A stretch of 64,000 nt of DNA from Escherichia phage RB43. How positions within the stretch are numbered: position 1 is the first letter of the stretch; every line of letters begins with the position of its first letter. The notes below the pieces were generated by a model. That model was not told the DNA's origin. It searched no databases and saw only the letters and a program-made list of their open reading frames with translations. The stretch lies in the sequence record NC_007023.1; one strand, written 5' to 3'. Positions 35,203 to 50,248 of the stretch are shown here, in pieces. Position numbers and translations under genes: made by a program.

Positions 35203-36880
35203 GTATCAGAATATTCTGTCGGTCGGGAATACCCCGATCGAACTCGAATTCGATACTGCAAAGAAAACCCTGATTACGGGTAAAAATGGTGGTGGTAAAT
35301 CCACACTGATCGAAGCGTTGACGTATGCTCTTTTTGGTAAGTCATTTCGTGATCTAAAAGTCGGGCAACTGGTAAACAGTGTCAACAAAAAGAAATGCCT
35401 TGTTGAACTCGAAATTGAATATGGCAAAGACTCGTACAAAATTGTACGTGGACAGAAGCCGAAGGTATTCGAGATCTGGAAAAACGGCGATAAGTTAGCA
35501 GAAGATTCGGCATCGGGTGATTATCAATCTCAGCTTGAATCCATGCTCAATATTAACCTGGTTGGATTCAAACAGGTAATCGTGTTGGGTACTGCTGGTT
35601 ATACTCCATTCATGGAACTGAGAACACCGGATCGCCGTAAACTGGTTGAAGACCTGTTGTCGCTATCGGTTATCAGTGAAATGGATAAGCTGAACAAATC
35701 ATATGTTCGTGGTGTTAATCAGCAGTTGGATACCCTGTCTATGCAGGTGAACCACATCCAGCAGCAGATCGCTACACACCAGCGCTTCATTGATGAACAG
35801 CGAGCTAAAGCGAACCAGAACAACGCACGATACAAAGAGATCTACGATAGTCACGTTGAAACCGCGAAGAACATCAAAGCACAGCTTATGCAGTTGCAAG
35901 CGGAGATCGCAGAAACGGTGATCACTGGTGCAGACCGAACGGAAGATATAAACAAACTCCGTGATGGTTATACGCGCCTCTCTATGACTGTAGAACAGTT
36001 TAAAAAGCTGGAAGTGATGTATCAGAAAGGTGGTGAGTGTCCGGCCTGTAAACAGGCGATTAAGCCCACTCCTGAACGCATGGAAGAGATCGCCAACAAT
36101 ATCAAAGCTGGTACACAACGATTAACGCTGATCAAAACCAAACAGGACGAGTTGCAAGGCATTATGAACGAGTTGCTTCAACAGCAACGCGCACTGAATG
36201 CTATGAAAACGAAATACGAAGCCCTGAAAGGTACTTTACAAAACGAAGTCGCCAACGCTAAACGCGCACAAGCTATTATGGAACAGGCAAGCGCGGAAGT
36301 CGTTATTGACGAAGAACCCGTTAAGCAGTTGCAGCAACAAGAAACAGAACTGAATGATAAACGTCAAGGATACGTGAAAGAAAAATATATCCGTGGTATC
36401 GTTACGGATATGTTAAAAGATTCAGGTGTGAAAGCCAGTATCGTAAAACGATATATTCCGTACTTCAATAAACAGATTGCGTATTATCTGAATCTGTTGG
36501 GTGCTGATTATCAATTTACACTGGATGATGAATTCAACGAATCGATCAAATCTCTGGGACGCGATGATTTTAGTTACGCATCATTCAGCCAGGGTGAACG
36601 CGCACGAATCAACCTATCAATTCTGTTTACATGGCGCGATGTAACAAGTAAAGTCTCCGGCGTGGATCTGTCTCTGCTGGTACTTGATGAAGTGTTTGAT
36701 GGGCCACTTGATAAAGAGGGTTCATTTGCGATTAAATCACTTCTGGATTCTGTCGATGGTAACGTTATTGTCATCAGTCATCAGGATCTTGATCCGCAAG
36801 ATTTCGATCGACACATCATCATGTCTAAGGTTGGACGGTTCACAAAACCATCAATCAAAGATATGGCGGTATCATGTTAG
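35177..36880 (+). CDS. 46: recombination ATPase gp46 (Rad50/SbcC-like)
   Basis: Walker A GKNGGGKST, coiled coil, CxxC hook (CPAC), signature FSQGE, Walker B LLVLDE. Confidence 0.9.
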   Translation: MKLNFKKIKYQNILSVGNTPIELEFDTAKKTLITGKNGGGKSTLIEALTYALFGKSFRDLKVGQLVNSVNKKKCLVELEIEYGKDSYKIVRGQKPKVFEIWKNGDKLAEDSASGDYQSQLESMLNINLVGFKQVIVLGTAGYTPFMELRTPDRRKLVEDLLSLSVISEMDKLNKSYVRGVNQQLDTLSMQVNHIQQQIATHQRFIDEQRAKANQNNARYKEIYDSHVETAKNIKAQLMQLQAEIAETVITGADRTEDINKLRDGYTRLSMTVEQFKKLEVMYQKGGECPACKQAIKPTPERMEEIANNIKAGTQRLTLIKTKQDELQGIMNELLQQQRALNAMKTKYEALKGTLQNEVANAKRAQAIMEQASAEVVIDEEPVKQLQQQETELNDKRQGYVKEKYIRGIVTDMLKDSGVKASIVKRYIPYFNKQIAYYLNLLGADYQFTLDDEFNESIKSLGRDDFSYASFSQGERARINLSILFTWRDVTSKVSGVDLSLLVLDEVFDGPLDKEGSFAIKSLLDSVDGNVIVISHQDLDPQDFDRHIIMSKVGRFTKPSIKDMAVSC

Positions 36881-37065
36881 AACGTGAGTTCGATTTAAAG
36901 ACCTCTCCCGAAGTGGATAGGTATTATCTACACAACGAACTGTTGGAAGAAAAACACGTTGTTACTATGGAAGATGTCAAAGAAGCCTTTAAAGACAATC
37001 AGTTAGAGCTAACGCGAATACTGAATAACAAATCGTCTGTATGGTTTCTTGAAAAAATCTATTGA
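36874..37065 (+). CDS. hypothetical protein (63 aa)
   Basis: ORF track; overlaps gp46 end. Confidence 0.4.
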   Translation: MLEREFDLKTSPEVDRYYLHNELLEEKHVVTMEDVKEAFKDNQLELTRILNNKSSVWFLEKIY

Positions 37066-37091
37066 CACCTGAACATAAATACCTTAAAGTT

Positions 37092-37125
37092 GCCCGTGTA
37101 CTGAGTTGCACGGGCTTTTATTTTG
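37092..37125 (+). terminator. rho-independent terminator
   Basis: GCCCGTGTACTGAGTTGCACGGGC followed by TTTTATTTT. Confidence 0.55.
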
Positions 37126-37136
37126 AGGAACGGAAA

Positions 37137-37850
37137 ATGATTAACGAAAAAATGACACATCGCGAAGCGTTGGAAATCTTAGGGGCTACTGGTACTGAAT
37201 CCAAAGCCGAAATGTCCAAACTCTTCAAACGTGCTTCTCTGCGTAATCACCCCGATCGTGGTGGTAGCACAGAACTCATGCAAAAAATTAACCAGGCATA
37301 TGACGTAGTAACGAGAACAAACAGTTCTGGCGAAACTATGATGGATATGCGAGCGCGTCACGCAGCGAATAAAAAAGCGTGGGAAGAAAAACTGGATGCG
37401 TATTTTGTTGTTGCTAAGAACTATTTCAGCACGAAATTTAACGCACAGGAATTCGCTGAATACTTCACCAAATACACCGGACAACCGACGACCTTCACAC
37501 AGGAAGTCAAGAAAGATACAATTTCCGTATCTGCTGTGTTCCGTTTCACTTCTGGTGATGCTCACTTTGATTTCGCTTTCTACTGCAAGCCGGAAGAAGG
37601 TAAAGGTTTGATGTCTCCTGATGCAAGCGCATTGGGTAGTGTTTCTGTCAATACTCTGGTATTGGTTGGAACCAAAAAACATAAAATGGCAAGCCGTGAA
37701 TATCAATGGGGCAAAAACCCAGATAAGATCACACCAGAAAGCCTGTTCCCGTCCAAGAAACTTGCATCAATTTTCAGCCCGACACAAAAGAACCTCAAGT
37801 TCAAACGTGCTGACTATATGACTTCTTTCCGCAAGCACTTAGACGCATAA
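37137..37850 (+). CDS. J-domain (DnaJ-like) protein
   Basis: ATG after GAGGAA; EALEILG...KLFKRASLRNHPDRGGS with HPD tripeptide. Confidence 0.65.
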   Translation: MINEKMTHREALEILGATGTESKAEMSKLFKRASLRNHPDRGGSTELMQKINQAYDVVTRTNSSGETMMDMRARHAANKKAWEEKLDAYFVVAKNYFSTKFNAQEFAEYFTKYTGQPTTFTQEVKKDTISVSAVFRFTSGDAHFDFAFYCKPEEGKGLMSPDASALGSVSVNTLVLVGTKKHKMASREYQWGKNPDKITPESLFPSKKLASIFSPTQKNLKFKRADYMTSFRKHLDA

Positions 37851-37913
37851 ATTAGCGGTAATGATATCTATGTTCCTGTAGGCGACCTGAAAGTTCGTTT
37901 CTATCGTCATGTA

Positions 37914-38834
37914 ATGATGCGTAAAGGTGCGTATGTGTTTAGTGCGGTATACGACCCAGCGGTAAGTAAATTCCGTTCTGCTGCAAACCTTCGCGGTACT
38001 ATGTTTGAAGACGAAGACGGCGCATGTTTGGATATGATTATCGACACTTTCAAAGAAATGCAGAAAGCAAAACCGAACGTTAACGGTATTGTCGGTATCA
38101 TTGACAAGATGAACGCAGAATTCGCAGCGGGACACCGTTCAGCATCTTTCGTCAAACGTATGGCACAGCAAGCAGCAGCACCGAAGCCGGAAGAAAAGCC
38201 GAAACGCACTGTTAACCGTATCAGCAAAGATGATTATTTCAACGCATTGAAACAAGCGGGTGCAACATTCCGTAGCAACTACGGTGAGTTTGATAACGGC
38301 GCTGGATTGACTTTCCACTTCAAACGCGAGATCAGCAACCGTAAAGGCTTCTGGAGTTTCAGCAGTTTTAATTTCATGCACTCTGGTCAACGTCATGTTG
38401 AATGGTTGAAAGATATCGACATTGACGAAGACAGCAAAGGTGCAAGTATCGGTCTGATGGTTGATACTCTGAAACAGTTGCGTGGTGTTGCTGATTGGTA
38501 TACTGCAAGAAAGATCCTGGAAGCGATGCGCGACAACTTCAAAGCTGGTAAGTTCTCCGCACCACACGTTAAGAAAGAAGCCGAACAGAAACGCACTGAG
38601 GCGCAAGCTAAGGACGAGTTAGGCGCACAGCCTACCAAACCCCAGGAAGCAAAGAAAGAAGCCCCAGCAGTTGATAAGGCTCATGAGGCGCAAATGGCTA
38701 AAGAGAAAGCACAGATGAATGCAACCATTCGTTCTATGCTCTCCGCTCTGGTTAAAGCTGGACGCAAAGACACGCCGGAAGAAATTAAAAAAGCAGTTGA
38801 TGAAGCAATCGCTCTCTGGCGCTTGAAACACTAA
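37914..38834 (+). CDS. hypothetical Lys/Ala/Glu-rich protein (306 aa)
   Basis: ORF track; same frame as J-domain gene, separated by single TAA and 63 open nt; no clear SD. Confidence 0.45.
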   Translation: MMRKGAYVFSAVYDPAVSKFRSAANLRGTMFEDEDGACLDMIIDTFKEMQKAKPNVNGIVGIIDKMNAEFAAGHRSASFVKRMAQQAAAPKPEEKPKRTVNRISKDDYFNALKQAGATFRSNYGEFDNGAGLTFHFKREISNRKGFWSFSSFNFMHSGQRHVEWLKDIDIDEDSKGASIGLMVDTLKQLRGVADWYTARKILEAMRDNFKAGKFSAPHVKKEAEQKRTEAQAKDELGAQPTKPQEAKKEAPAVDKAHEAQMAKEKAQMNATIRSMLSALVKAGRKDTPEEIKKAVDEAIALWRLKH

Positions 38835-38850
38835 CTGATTGTGTTATACT

Positions 38851-38880
38851 GGGAACTGTTGAAAAGCAGTTCCCTTTTTT
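38851..38880 (+). terminator. rho-independent terminator
   Basis: GGGAACTGTTGAAAAGCAGTTCCC followed by TTTTTT. Confidence 0.6.
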
Positions 38881-38894
38881 ATGAGGAAAATACT

Positions 38895-39221
38895 ATGAGT
38901 TGTCCAACATGGGCGCATTTTGAAAATTTGAAAGAAGGTACGCAGAAACGCGTGTATATCAATCTGGGTTGGATTCCTCCAAGTGATTTTGAATTATCCG
39001 TAATTCTGGTCAATGCCAGCAAAGAGATCAACGAAACTTTCGAATGGGAAAGACTTACTTTGCCTGTTCATCCAGGGTTCTTTATGTCCCGTGAAAAGTT
39101 CGAAGAAATGAAACGAGCGGTAGAATGTATCAATGGGTTTACTACGCCATCTCTACGTATGCACTACCGGAACCTATTCACCCTGAAAAAAGCATGGGAA
39201 ATCGCGGAGGTTGAATTATGA
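38895..39221 (+). CDS. hypothetical protein (108 aa)
   Basis: ATG after GAGGAAAA, downstream of terminator. Confidence 0.45.
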   Translation: MSCPTWAHFENLKEGTQKRVYINLGWIPPSDFELSVILVNASKEINETFEWERLTLPVHPGFFMSREKFEEMKRAVECINGFTTPSLRMHYRNLFTLKKAWEIAEVEL

Positions 39222-39499
39222 TTATTCAGGTATCCGTACAGGGTAACACTCTGACAGTAACCAATTCCATTATGACCGCTATGGCTGCATGTCGTGATCA
39301 TGTATTGACAACGCCGCCTGTGACTGAAATTTTGGAAATTGATATATGGCACGGTGGTGTAATTTCTGGATCTTATGGATTCACACCACTGGAAGAAAAT
39401 TTAAACACAATGGAAGAATGGTTATATGGGAAATTGTACACCAATGAAACTACCAAAGCATACGACGCTGTTAACTCGCGAAAAACTACATTCTGTTGA
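39218..39499 (+). CDS. hypothetical protein (93 aa)
   Basis: ORF track. Confidence 0.4.
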   Translation: MIIQVSVQGNTLTVTNSIMTAMAACRDHVLTTPPVTEILEIDIWHGGVISGSYGFTPLEENLNTMEEWLYGKLYTNETTKAYDAVNSRKTTFC

Positions 39500-39701
39500 A
39501 TGGAGTCCCTTAGACGTGATGATCTTTGATATCGAATCACGGATCATCAATGCTCGTATGAACGGATTAGGAATCTTTTCTGTTGAATTCGAAAAGATTC
39601 GCGGTTATAATGCTGAATGTAAAAACAAGTTACGCGTCATGGTGGAAGCAATGGGCTACATCGTGGATATTGAAGACAATAAAATGTGGATCGGATTATG
39701 A
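39426..39701 (+). CDS. hypothetical protein (start uncertain)
   Basis: ORF track; stop overlaps frd ATG (ATGA). Confidence 0.35.
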   Translation: MGNCTPMKLPKHTTLLTREKLHSVEWSPLDVMIFDIESRIINARMNGLGIFSVEFEKIRGYNAECKNKLRVMVEAMGYIVDIEDNKMWIGL

Positions 39702-49037: not shown

Positions 49038-49562
49038 ATGAAATTACTTCATATGATCCGCGCCATAAAGCAAAGTCAGGGTTCTCGATGTATATCGAAC
49101 CGTGTAGGCGCTGTTATTGTAATGAATGGGCGTGTGGTTTCACAGGGTACGAATAATACGGTTGATTCTGATTGTCGATGCGCCGATCATAACAATCATA
49201 TGCTGAATGATGAAGGTAAGTTGAAAGCAATTCATCGACCAGAACATTCAGCATGGTCGAACGATAACGAAATTCACGCTGAAATGAAAGCGTTGCTAAG
49301 TGCTCATACTAATGGTATCATGCTTAATAACGCAGAGTTATACACAACCGCTTCACCGTGTCCGAACTGTGCAAAACACATCGAATGGTATGTTGCGATT
49401 GGTGCAATAACTTCTGTATATTTCCTCGATAAATACGATCGTGGTAATGATGAATGGATTTCGCGTTTGCAAAAATATGGTTGCAAAGTGGAACAAATTA
49501 AACGGGAAAAGTTGGAACCTCATATCAACTTTTCTAATGTAGTGTTTAACAACAATGAGTAA
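49038..49562 (+). CDS. cd: dCMP deaminase
   Basis: Zinc-binding HAEMKAL and PCPNCA motifs. Confidence 0.85.
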   Translation: MKLLHMIRAIKQSQGSRCISNRVGAVIVMNGRVVSQGTNNTVDSDCRCADHNNHMLNDEGKLKAIHRPEHSAWSNDNEIHAEMKALLSAHTNGIMLNNAELYTTASPCPNCAKHIEWYVAIGAITSVYFLDKYDRGNDEWISRLQKYGCKVEQIKREKLEPHINFSNVVFNNNE

Positions 49563-49566
49563 CAAA

Positions 49567-49911
49567 ATGTCTGAACTGAAAGTAAAAGCATCTTTTGAAT
49601 ATGTGATTATCGAAACTGTCGCGCGTCCTGCTGGTTCCGAAATCGTTTCAGAATCTGGATTCCTTATTGGAATTCGTCAGCAAGGCGAAGAACCGATTTC
49701 TGGTAAAATCGTTTCTGTAGGGCCGGATGTACCGGAAGAAAAAGCAAAAGAACTGTTGGGTAAAATGGTTCCTCTTCCGAAAGGTCATATGGCAAATGTT
49801 CCTGATCCAGATTTGGTGAAGGGTGTTATTAGCGCGGAAGATGCACGTACCAAAGAAGTAAAATACGTTTCCGCACATTATAAAGCTGTTCAAGCAATTT
49901 ACGAGATCTAA
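49567..49911 (+). CDS. 31: co-chaperonin gp31 (GroES-like)
   Basis: MSELKVKASFEYVIIE...VSVGPDVPEE resembles T4 gp31; follows cd as in T4. Confidence 0.7.
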   Translation: MSELKVKASFEYVIIETVARPAGSEIVSESGFLIGIRQQGEEPISGKIVSVGPDVPEEKAKELLGKMVPLPKGHMANVPDPDLVKGVISAEDARTKEVKYVSAHYKAVQAIYEI

Positions 49912-50171: not shown

Positions 50172-50248
50172 GGCCCTTTAGCTCAATTGGTAGAGCGAAC
50201 CCCTCATAAGGGTGTGGTTTCCGGTTCGAGTCACGGAAGGGGCCACCA
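50172..50248 (+). tRNA. tRNA with CAU anticodon (Met, or Ile2 if lysidine-modified)
   Basis: Cloverleaf by hand: acceptor GGCCCTT/AGGGGCC, D-arm GCTC-AATTGGTA-GAGC, anticodon loop CTCATAA, T-loop TTCGAGT, 3' ACCA; T-stem carries one extra base. Confidence 0.6.

Follow-up and report, generated by a model that had tools for sequence, protein, structure and literature searches.

A TAA that separates the phage RB43 J-domain gene rki from the in-frame ORF058w is probably a recent nonsense change in a longer ancestral gene

The window analysed here is a stretch of 64,000 nucleotides from Escherichia phage RB43 (NC_007023.1), and the locus of interest lies at positions 37137-38834. The first-pass annotation had described one open reading frame at 37137-37850 that ends in TAA (37848-37850), followed in the same frame by another at 37914-38834 after 63 stop-free nucleotides (37851-37913). 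All these coordinates are correct, and the two starts are 777 nucleotides (259 x 3) apart. The first frame is rki, or ORF057w, of RB43 and is 100% identical to the CDS CCK73906.1 of the RB43-GVA record; the whole region is likewise 100% identical to RB43-GVA. The product, Rki (UniProt Q56BZ1), has been described as a 237-aa type III J-domain protein (Perrody et al. 2012, PLoS Genet 8:e1003037, PMC3486835). The locus contains the following features.

37062-37090, plus strand: sigma-70-like promoter match (TTGACA, 17 nt, TAAAGT) just upstream of rki; weak, score 10/12
37092-37115, plus strand: intrinsic-terminator-like hairpin and T-run between gene 45.2 and rki; 9-bp stem with 6 GC pairs, TTTTATTTT tail
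37125-37129, plus strand: Shine-Dalgarno sequence GAGGA of rki, read from the sequence; anti-SD duplex energy -6.2 kcal/mol
37137-37850, plus strand: rki/ORF057w, ATG at 37137, 237 codons and TAA; very probably codons 1-237 of an ancestral 565-codon gene (J and middle domains)
37137-37316, plus strand: J domain, residues 1-60, three helices; HPD encoded at 37248-37256
37338-37847, plus strand: middle domain, residues 68-237; the AF2 model predicts two helices, followed by an antiparallel sheet and by helices that end in KRADYMTSFRKHLDA
37848-37850, plus strand: TAA ochre codon; T37848 very probably derived, with GAA (Glu238) as the ancestral codon
37848-38186, plus strand: repeat A, residues 238-350; meander sheet and three helices predicted in AF2 models
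37851-37913, plus strand: "spacer", very probably codons 239-259 of the ancestral gene; predicted first beta-strands of repeat A; identical to CfP1
37914-38834, plus strand: ORF058w, 306 aa, codons 260-565 and stop; phrog_7739 positions 260-565, E 2.7e-200
38214-38552, plus strand: repeat B, residues 360-472; helix, meander sheet and two helices predicted (AF2 models, hhalign)
38544-38675, plus strand: predicted disordered Ala/Lys/Glu/Gln-rich linker, residues ~470-513 (AF2 pLDDT, composition)
38676-38831, plus strand: predicted C-terminal helical hairpin, residues 514-565; AF2 helices 514-541 and 547-564, pLDDT 87-91
38851-38874, plus strand: intrinsic-terminator-like hairpin closing the rki-058w transcription unit; 10-bp stem, TTTTTT tail

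Promoter-like matches are no more numerous in this region than in shuffled sequences, so the match at 37062-37090 is weak evidence only. A terminator is annotated at the hairpin upstream of rki in CfP1, Miller, Margaery and KP27, and at the hairpin downstream of ORF058w in CfP1 and Margaery. No promoter and no terminator was found between rki and ORF058w. The RB43-GVA record starts ORF058w at the second ATG, 37917. The frame is Lys/Ala/Glu-rich, as had been noted (A 13.7%, K 11.4%, E 7.2%), with A 20%, K 17% and E 11.5% in the last 96 residues. The GroES-like gp31 gene that had been called nearby is present in the window at 49555-49911 (Pfam Cpn10, 23.1 bits with a cut-off of 21.1; PHROG 931, "head morphogenesis"), but at 10.7 kb downstream the word is generous.

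The J domain that had been recognised from the motif EALEILG...NHPDRGGS is present. The HPD motif occupies residues 38-40, in the stretch that joins AF2 helices 23-36 and 45-60, and hardly varies among family members. As a single sequence Rki matches the Pfam DnaJ family with an E-value of 1.5e-5 and 25.4 bits, just below the gathering score of 27.8 bits. A profile of 23 family members searched against PDB sequences found the J domain of E. coli DnaJ (5nro_B, E 5.8e-9) and more than 30 other J domains, which upholds the assignment. A precomputed PF00226 match is also found in many of the homolog clusters, and Rki has the J-domain fold. The matches of the PDB profile search are confined to residues 1-88, and searches of Rki, ORF058w and the full-length RB16 protein for the Pfam families DnaJ_CXXCXGXG and DnaJ_C gave no match at E up to 1. 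Rki has no G/F-rich region, zinc-finger domain or DnaJ C-terminal domain and belongs to the type III (class C) proteins.

The locus, the J-domain protein, the DnaK/sigma-32 mechanism and the in-frame relation to ORF058w have all been known since 2012. Studies done by Perrody et al. showed that Rki binds DnaK through the HPD motif and stimulates the DnaK ATPase, with pull-down and ATPase assays in agreement (PMC3486835); the recruitment of host DnaK that had been suggested from the sequence thus has experimental support. It was also shown experimentally that Rki stabilises sigma-32, that its toxicity is DnaK-dependent, and that a Jd57-DnaJ chimera complements, an effect lost with H38Q (PMC3486835). 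The same paper noted that ORF058w lies in frame with rki and that one base sets RB16 apart at the stop, where RB16 has GAA in place of TAA and produces a 565-aa Rki-58 protein (PMC3486835). The RB16 and KP15 proteins were regarded as "fusions" brought about by replacement of the rki stop codon, and the RB16 fusion was reported to fall considerably short of Rki in toxicity and in efficiency, including in sigma-32 stabilisation (PMC3486835). What is added here is a refinement, namely which way the change went. Nor did the 2012 paper describe how the ORF058w part is built of repeats. In the library searched for later work on Rki, no paper takes up the direction again.

Models and profile comparisons of the full-length protein show a predicted order of J domain, middle domain, two homologous repeats, disordered linker and helical hairpin. 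Chymotrypsin mapping had located a domain at residues 76-237 of Rki (PMC3486835), and the result with Rki(1-159) indicates that toxicity depends on the middle domain. Repeats A and B align in hhalign over 94 columns with a probability of 98.8% and an E-value of 1e-15. AF2 pLDDT is ~30-36 over most of the linker and below 50 for residues 481-513. Several possible relationships were rejected. In hhalign the sheet regions of the middle domain are unrelated to those of the repeats and only the short KRADY helix matches. The Pfam hits on ORF058w (GUCT, DUF6282, MIC19 and Death, all at E 0.05 or worse) are sub-threshold noise. The family profile matched nothing among PDB sequences outside the J domain, and in a Foldseek search of the full model against the PDB the J domain was the only convincing match; an analogy with PUR repeats was dropped, as PURA, MRP1/2 and the Plk4 cryptic polo box gave a probability below 0.5 and a TM-score below 0.3.

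Which of the two forms, split or continuous, came first? The chance of an in-frame neighbour with 21 stop-free codons between is about 0.09 at this base composition, so the layout alone carries no significance. It is homology to one PHROG family and not the layout that makes the relation between the two frames real: both match phrog_7739 (565 positions), rki at 1-237 and ORF058w at 260-565. RB43 itself has two frames split by TAA and not one polypeptide of residues 1-565 of the Rki16 type. Over the 1698 nt, RB43 and CfP1 differ at one position, T37848 versus G. Xman, Miller and IME-CF2 differ from RB43 by 4, 5 and 9 nt, and all of these changes apart from the one in codon 238 are synonymous. 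The gene is unbroken in these four Citrobacter phages, which are 99.3-99.9% identical to RB43 here. Codon 238 is GAA in CfP1, Miller, Xman, IME-CF2, Lw1, RB16 and GuL6, AAG in Margaery, GAC in KP27, ACC in JC221 and AAA in Mm5, that is, a sense codon (E, K, D or T) in 11/11 aligned relatives. The first seven of these phages carry a single CDS of 1698 nt, Margaery one of 1704 nt, and KP27, JC221 and Mm5 one of 1710-1713 nt.

The wider survey gives the same picture. A tblastn search matched 203 phage records, and gene structure was taken from the 60 of these that were listed. Among the 60, 51 align over the full 565 residues and have one feature under the match in all except Klebsiella phage CPRSA; the other 9 are more distant and align over part of the query only. 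The proteins of 18 of the 21 protein clusters are 561-573 aa long, every full-length cluster is uninterrupted, and none of 8 IMG/VR loci has an internal stop. CPRSA was considered as a second split allele and rejected, since its break is due to two 1-nt indels (nt 464 and 1218) that compensate each other and have nothing to do with codon 238; the number of features in the record is unusually high, and the break is probably an assembly error. The "spacer" also behaves as coding sequence. Among relatives its dN/dS is 0.02-0.5, conserved residues run across the ORF junction, and AF2 places strands at residues 238-260 with a pLDDT of ~95, which together indicate that 37851-37913 is coding in the relatives and not intergenic. 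The sense codon in all relatives examined and the single base that separates RB43 from CfP1 argue for a recent nonsense change from GAA to TAA, with the "fusion" as the ancestral form. It is very probable, then, that 37137-38834 is one ancestral 565-aa gene, cut by a G-to-T nonsense change in RB43, with ORF058w as the rest. The direction is opposite to the "fusion" view of 2012: with ~200 genomes now available, sequence comparison shows the RB43 allele to be the derived one. The first-pass annotation had raised read-through and a nonsense allele as two possibilities, of which the nonsense allele stands.

The following course of events is proposed. A G-to-T transversion at 37848 would have turned Glu238 (GAA) into the ochre codon TAA in RB43, and in RB42, where the allele is known from the paper's statement alone (PMC3486835). 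Translation from the Shine-Dalgarno sequence and ATG 37137 would stop after 237 residues and yield Rki, whose HPD J domain would engage host DnaK and block DnaK/FtsH-dependent sigma-32 turnover; heat-shock proteins would be raised and phage growth helped. The DnaK/sigma-32 mechanism of Rki was demonstrated experimentally by Perrody et al. (PMC3486835). The truncation would be tolerated at a natural module boundary. The remaining 327 codons ("spacer" and ORF058w) would be an orphaned C-terminal part without a Shine-Dalgarno sequence or promoter and with a conserved internal Met as the only start codon; that it is still intact would be due solely to the very recent date of the mutation. The truncation may de-repress Rki activity. 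There is a fairly small chance that it is adaptive and not a neutral accident, in that loss of the repeats and tail would relieve an autoinhibitory or regulatory module and turn a mild 565-aa J-protein into a hyperactive sigma-32 stabiliser, with selection during the move of a Citrobacter-type phage (CfP1, Miller) to E. coli. If so, what is known of "Rki" would describe a fragment with a gain of function, while the repeat domains would serve the native full-length protein in a different job.

The nonsense-allele reading has to be weighed against other explanations, and the one that survives best bears on ORF058w. Here RB43 would have two cistrons, with re-initiation at ATG 37914/37917 or at GTG 37935 giving Rki and a separate functional ORF058w protein; this reading, under which the split would be a working and possibly advantageous operon, is improbable. 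The two genes do lie in one transcription unit between terminators, the downstream frame is intact, and GTG 37935, a possible weak internal start, is preceded by a weak AAAGG with a duplex energy of -3.9 kcal/mol. Anti-SD duplex energies were computed for the ORF058w ATGs, for 10 neighbouring annotated starts and for all ATGs in the window. The values for ORF058w were +1.2 and +0.9 kcal/mol, which places its two ATGs in the weakest 10-13% of the ATGs of the window, compared with -3.2 or better at the 10 neighbouring starts; the earlier remark that ORF058w has no convincing Shine-Dalgarno sequence is borne out, and with the gap of 63 nt the two frames do not form a translationally coupled pair. 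In bacterial translation 63 nt is a long distance for re-initiation that does not depend on a Shine-Dalgarno sequence. The product would, according to the models, start in the middle of the beta-sheet of repeat A without strands 238-259, and the two-cistron layout is found in no other phage examined. Met261 is a nearly invariant internal residue, whereas GuL6, Margaery and KP27 have Phe in place of Met260. Perrody et al. suggested that the products of rki and ORF058w might cooperate; however, when ORF058w was co-overexpressed, Rki toxicity and sigma-32 stabilisation were unchanged (PMC3486835). ORF058w is fully intact in RB43, but with one substitution since the split from CfP1 its intactness says nothing either way on selection. 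Lacking a Shine-Dalgarno sequence, ORF058w is probably translated at a low level, if at all, and it may be largely silent in RB43.

Very unlikely is a programmed or leaky read-through of TAA, in which RB43 would make the 237-aa Rki and a minor 565-aa protein. The downstream frame is in phase with 21 stop-free codons between, and the sequence after TAA is identical to that of functional full-length genes. However, this layout is a trivial consequence of a recent point mutation, and as the stop is found in no relative nothing was selected to promote read-through. UAA is the stop codon that is most efficiently terminated in E. coli. ARAGORN finds tRNA-Met only, and no suppressor tRNA, in the window and the rest of the RB43-GVA genome, and Rfam gave 0 matches in 36800-39300 at E up to 1. 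The anti-Rki western blot of the 2012 paper, reported to tell Rki in RB43 and RB42 apart from the RB16 fusion, also argues against read-through, although a minor product of this kind may exist (PMC3486835). The TAA therefore does not have the marks of a recoding site: it is not conserved among relatives that keep the downstream frame, and there is no suppressor tRNA or stimulatory element.

The single-base difference from CfP1 could point to a sequencing or assembly error, with a gene that is really fused in RB43. This is hardly credible, as TAA is present in two independently determined RB43 sequences that differ elsewhere, the window and the Illumina RB43-GVA record, and as the 2012 paper reports an anti-Rki western blot that separates Rki, seen in RB43 and RB42, from the Rki-58 fusion of RB16 (PMC3486835). 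The window is inferred to be an RB43 sequence independent of HE858210.2 because the coordinate offset between them drifts from 405 to 401 over 25 kb; the two stocks differ at 107 positions or more (PMC3486835).

On the nonsense-allele reading, Rki is a naturally truncated allele, found here only in RB43 and reported for RB42. To our knowledge it is the only phage J-domain protein that has been characterised experimentally. About 175 phages of Klebsiella, Enterobacter, Cronobacter, Citrobacter and Escherichia have a homolog matching at least 80% of the 565-aa protein, and the homologs examined in detail are a single uninterrupted gene. The full-length form would be the right reference for extending the toxicity and potency of Rki to the family, and also for any annotation that treats "ORF058w" as a gene of its own. 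Concrete constructs for testing the C-terminal part can be taken from the domain map.

Among the closest described systems is RB16 (Rki16, gp058, UniProt D9ICB9), which has 97.6% nucleotide identity to RB43 and a protein that is collinear over 565 codons. RB16 gp058, KP15 gp055 and the phrog_7739 proteins are ~565 aa long, whereas RB43 makes residues 1-237 only. Shorter relatives also exist. ST65p124 of Aeromonas phage 65 (244 aa) has the J and middle domains in common with Rki and aligns to residues 11-227; it ends 10 residues after KKADY, and Rki ends 10 residues after KRADY. The 349-aa clusters P0018-P0020 (phrog_13942) have the J domain, the middle domain and one repeat. These layouts show that the family is modular and that the RB43 truncation repeats the shortest natural one; a stop at the end point of the phage 65 protein, a module boundary, would explain why truncated Rki still works. 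The short homologs differ from the RB43 allele in that they are 27-54% identical, have their own stops and have no orphaned coding sequence downstream. The T antigens of SV40 and polyomavirus are also type III (class C) J-domain proteins, but their sequence outside the J domain is unrelated to Rki, and the process they target is Rb or replication and not sigma-32 turnover.

rki (ORF057w) and ORF058w of RB43 share a reading frame, ATG 37914 lying 777 nt (259 codons) from ATG 37137, and the 63 bases between TAA 37848-37850 and the paired ATG codons at 37914/37917 contain no stop. The first-pass annotation had both ORFs, the TAA and the gap at exactly these positions, and its Lys/Ala/Glu-rich composition for the downstream ORF agrees with ours. 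By itself this layout is unremarkable; base composition alone gives a ~0.09 chance that a neighbouring ORF lies in frame across 21 stop-free codons. The features concerned are:

37092-37115, + strand: terminator-like hairpin 5' of rki (hairpin search)
37125-37129, + strand: Shine-Dalgarno GAGGA of rki (read from the sequence)
37137-37850, + strand: rki, ATG 37137, 237 codons, TAA 37848-37850
37914-38834, + strand: ORF058w, 306 codons, Ala/Lys/Glu-rich, most so in the final 96 residues
38851-38874, + strand: terminator-like hairpin 3' of ORF058w (hairpin search)
38895-39701, + strand: three small ORFs of 108, 93 and 60 aa
49555-49911, + strand: GroES-like cochaperonin (gp31/CocO type), 118 aa; Pfam Cpn10 23.1 bits (cut-off 21.1), PHROG 931 'head morphogenesis'
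50172-50248, + strand: tRNA-Met (CAT)

The locus is already known from the 2012 literature, the first ORF being the rki (ORF057w) of Perrody et al. 2012 (PMC3486835). RB43 isolate RB43-GVA (HE858210.2) matches the stretch at 100% identity and has the two ORFs annotated as separate 'proteins of unknown function'. Rki is a type III J-domain protein of 237 aa whose J domain substitutes for that of E. coli DnaJ, and H38Q abolishes the substitution (PMC3486835). It pulls down DnaK, stimulates the DnaK ATPase and stabilizes sigma-32, and its toxicity is DnaK-dependent and also requires the C-terminal domain (PMC3486835). The phage requires rki to plate well at low temperature or on MC4100, and the delta-rki defect is suppressed fully by extra sigma-32 and weakly by extra GroESL (PMC3486835). 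The J domain noticed at first pass (EALEILGATG and LRNHPDRGGS near the N-terminus, HPD codons at 37248-37256) is recognized by profile searches: Pfam DnaJ matches the single sequence with E 1.5e-5, slightly below the gathering score, and the family profile matches the E. coli DnaJ J-domain with E 5.8e-9. The suggested recruitment of host DnaK is borne out by the published pull-down and ATPase stimulation.

The 2012 paper drew on five genomes and termed RB16 the fusion: it has GAA instead of TAA and encodes a 565-aa 'Rki-58 fusion' (Rki16), KP15 is likewise fused, unlike RB42 and Aeromonas phage 65, and a western blot reportedly separates the Rki of RB43 and RB42 from the RB16 fusion (PMC3486835). 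Present collections hold many more genomes, and their sequences identify the RB43 allele as mutant and the 'fusion' as the family's wild type. A single uninterrupted CDS of 1698 nt is found in CfP1, Miller, Xman, IME-CF2, Lw1, RB16 and GuL6; it is unbroken at 1704 nt in Margaery and at 1710-1713 nt in KP27, JC221 and Morganella vB_Mm5. Searched by tblastn, the full-length protein matched 203 phage records, and in 175 of them a single place spans at least 80% of the query. Among the 60 matches listed, evenly sampled along the ranking, 51 align over the full 565 residues, 50 of these with one annotated feature beneath. Length is 561-573 aa for 18 of the 21 protein clusters retrieved among 5.8 billion non-redundant database proteins; internal stops are absent from eight IMG/VR loci, and phrog_7739, a family of ~565-aa proteins, matches both RB43 ORFs, at positions 1-237 and 260-565 of its 565-position profile. 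Citrobacter phage CfP1 is the nearest relative and departs from RB43 at exactly one base over 1698 nt, 37848 (T in RB43, G in CfP1). Xman, Miller and IME-CF2 differ from RB43 by 4, 5 and 9 bases, all synonymous save position 37848. Close relatives have GAA at codon 238, and more distant ones AAG, GAC, ACC or AAA. RB43 is nested among unbroken genes, so the TAA arose recently from GAA by nonsense mutation. Codons 239-259 of the full-length gene make up the 63-nt 'spacer'; they show coding-type evolution in relatives (dN/dS 0.02-0.5) and are confidently predicted as beta-strands. The first-pass annotation had raised read-through or a nonsense allele; only the latter is supported.

Re-initiation at ORF058w after the TAA is unlikely and lacks the usual signals. 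As noted at first pass, there is no convincing SD: anti-SD duplex energies are +1.2 and +0.9 kcal/mol at ATGs 37914/37917 versus -3.2 to -10.8 kcal/mol at ten neighbouring annotated starts, which is within the weakest 10-13% of all same-strand ATGs, and 63 nt separate the TAA from the first of them. Within the family, Met261 is an almost invariant internal residue and not an evolved start, Met260 is replaced by Phe in GuL6, Margaery and KP27, a product from Met260/261 would miss the first strands of its own domain, and co-expressed ORF058w had no effect on Rki (PMC3486835). Read-through of the TAA is not supported. The downstream ORF does share the rki frame, but a fresh point mutation trivially accounts for this; the TAA is not conserved among relatives, the tRNA-Met at 50172-50248 is the sole tRNA gene of the entire RB43 genome, and an Rfam search of 36800-39300 for a recoding RNA element gave 0 matches. 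We infer that ORF058w, now severed from rki by the nonsense mutation, is largely untranslated in RB43. One substitution since CfP1 leaves no time for ORF058w to decay, thus its sequence alone is no proof of silence.

A sequencing error at the TAA was rejected, as two differing RB43 sequences both carry it and the western blot is reported to show Rki. BLAST gives 100.0% identity between window 25000-49999 and HE858210.2 24595-49598, yet the coordinate offset shrinks from 405 to 401 along these 25 kb, which means indels of 4 bases net. The window is therefore not a slice of HE858210.2 but another RB43 sequence, presumably the one originally published. The 2012 authors state at least 107 nt of difference between their RB43 stock and the published sequence (PMC3486835). 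The one other split homolog among the 51 full-length tblastn matches listed is that of Klebsiella phage CPRSA (OM971648.1; L013 301-2010), annotated as three ORFs. Compared with KP27 it has lost one base at nt 464 and gained one at nt 1218, and these compensating indels, which lie away from codon 238, cause the split. With 483 features in 198 kb, versus ~275 in 175 kb for relatives, the record is probably rich in indel errors, and the split looks like an assembly artefact.

Between rki and ORF058w there is no terminator-like hairpin comparable to the two that bracket them. A promoter-like TTGACA-17-TAAAGT (37062-37115 region, + strand) stops one base short of the hairpin after gene 45.2. Its transcript would begin in the hairpin 5' arm and so escape termination, whereas upstream transcripts would stop; this terminator-promoter overlap may insulate rki. 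rki with its native promoter could not be cloned (PMC3486835). Some relatives, not RB43, carry homing-endonuclease genes between gene 46 and gene 45.2 (RB16 'homing endonuclease 2', L002 819-1394; Lw1, mobE-like, L006 1-120; CPRSA, L013 1-33), and an insertion hot spot seems to lie immediately 5' of rki. The three small ORFs complete the 'locus of five genes absent from T4' (PMC3486835). The 108-aa and 93-aa ORFs match PHROGs 5175 and 7189, function unknown, and none of the three has a Pfam match. RB16 and Margaery have two ORFs only (228 and 276 nt) in the interval after the rki-family gene, so the locus is variable among close relatives. The gp31 gene mentioned at first pass is indeed in the window, though 10.7 kb downstream of ORF058w, and its presence fits a phage dependent on host GroEL. 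The tRNA-Met is the only tRNA found in the window and the rest of the RB43-GVA genome (L034-L036), an exceptionally low number for a 180-kb T4-like phage.

An AlphaFold2 model of P0001, a full-length homolog 94% identical (23-row alignment, mean pLDDT 82.6), predicts:

1-60: J domain
68-114: two helices
118-190: antiparallel sheet
200-235: helices
238-290: second sheet
296-347: helices
348-363: linker
364-373: helix
377-430: third sheet
436-469: helices
about 470-513: low-confidence Ala/Lys/Glu/Gln-rich stretch
514-564: helical hairpin

By hhalign, residues 238-350 are homologous to residues 377-472 and form a pair of repeats with them (probability 98.8%, E 1e-15, 94 columns), and the helices ahead of them, KRADYMTSFRKHLDA and NKDDYINAFKQIG, align too (profile-profile, E 4e-4). 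Both repeats were recovered when RB43 residues 239-474 were modelled separately (pLDDT 86.7).

As others have shown, Rki(1-237) engages DnaK via HPD, and its J domain and middle domain (residues 68-237) jointly block DnaK/FtsH-mediated sigma-32 turnover; the outcome is more heat-shock proteins and better phage growth (PMC3486835). In the putative ancestral, near-universal form this J-plus-middle unit bears two repeats and a helical tail. In both toxicity and efficiency the full-length RB16 protein is reported to fall considerably short of Rki (PMC3486835), thus attenuation or redirection of J-plus-middle activity is the most likely role of the C-terminal part. The RB43 nonsense mutation removed this part, a loss that may have been neutral or advantageous on E. 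coli. The direction of the change and the domain map of the full-length protein are additions to the 2012 paper, and they call for caution in using Rki as a model phage J-protein and in annotating ORF058w as a gene.

Comparison of the homologs indicates that the Rki family is modular. The Pseudotevenvirus/Slopekvirus group has a J domain, middle domain, two repeats and tail, and three clusters and two metagenomic loci (~342-360 aa) have one repeat. Distant single-repeat homologs on IMG/VR contigs (L024 2013-3077; L025 484-1584) are 26-27% identical, and the J-plus-middle-plus-repeat module thus reaches well beyond Pseudotevenvirus and Slopekvirus phages. The 244-aa homolog of Aeromonas phage 65 consists of the J domain and middle domain alone. 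It ends in KKADY plus 10 residues and Rki in KRADY plus 10 residues, so the RB43 stop falls on a natural module boundary; this would explain why the truncated Rki is soluble, monomeric and active (PMC3486835).
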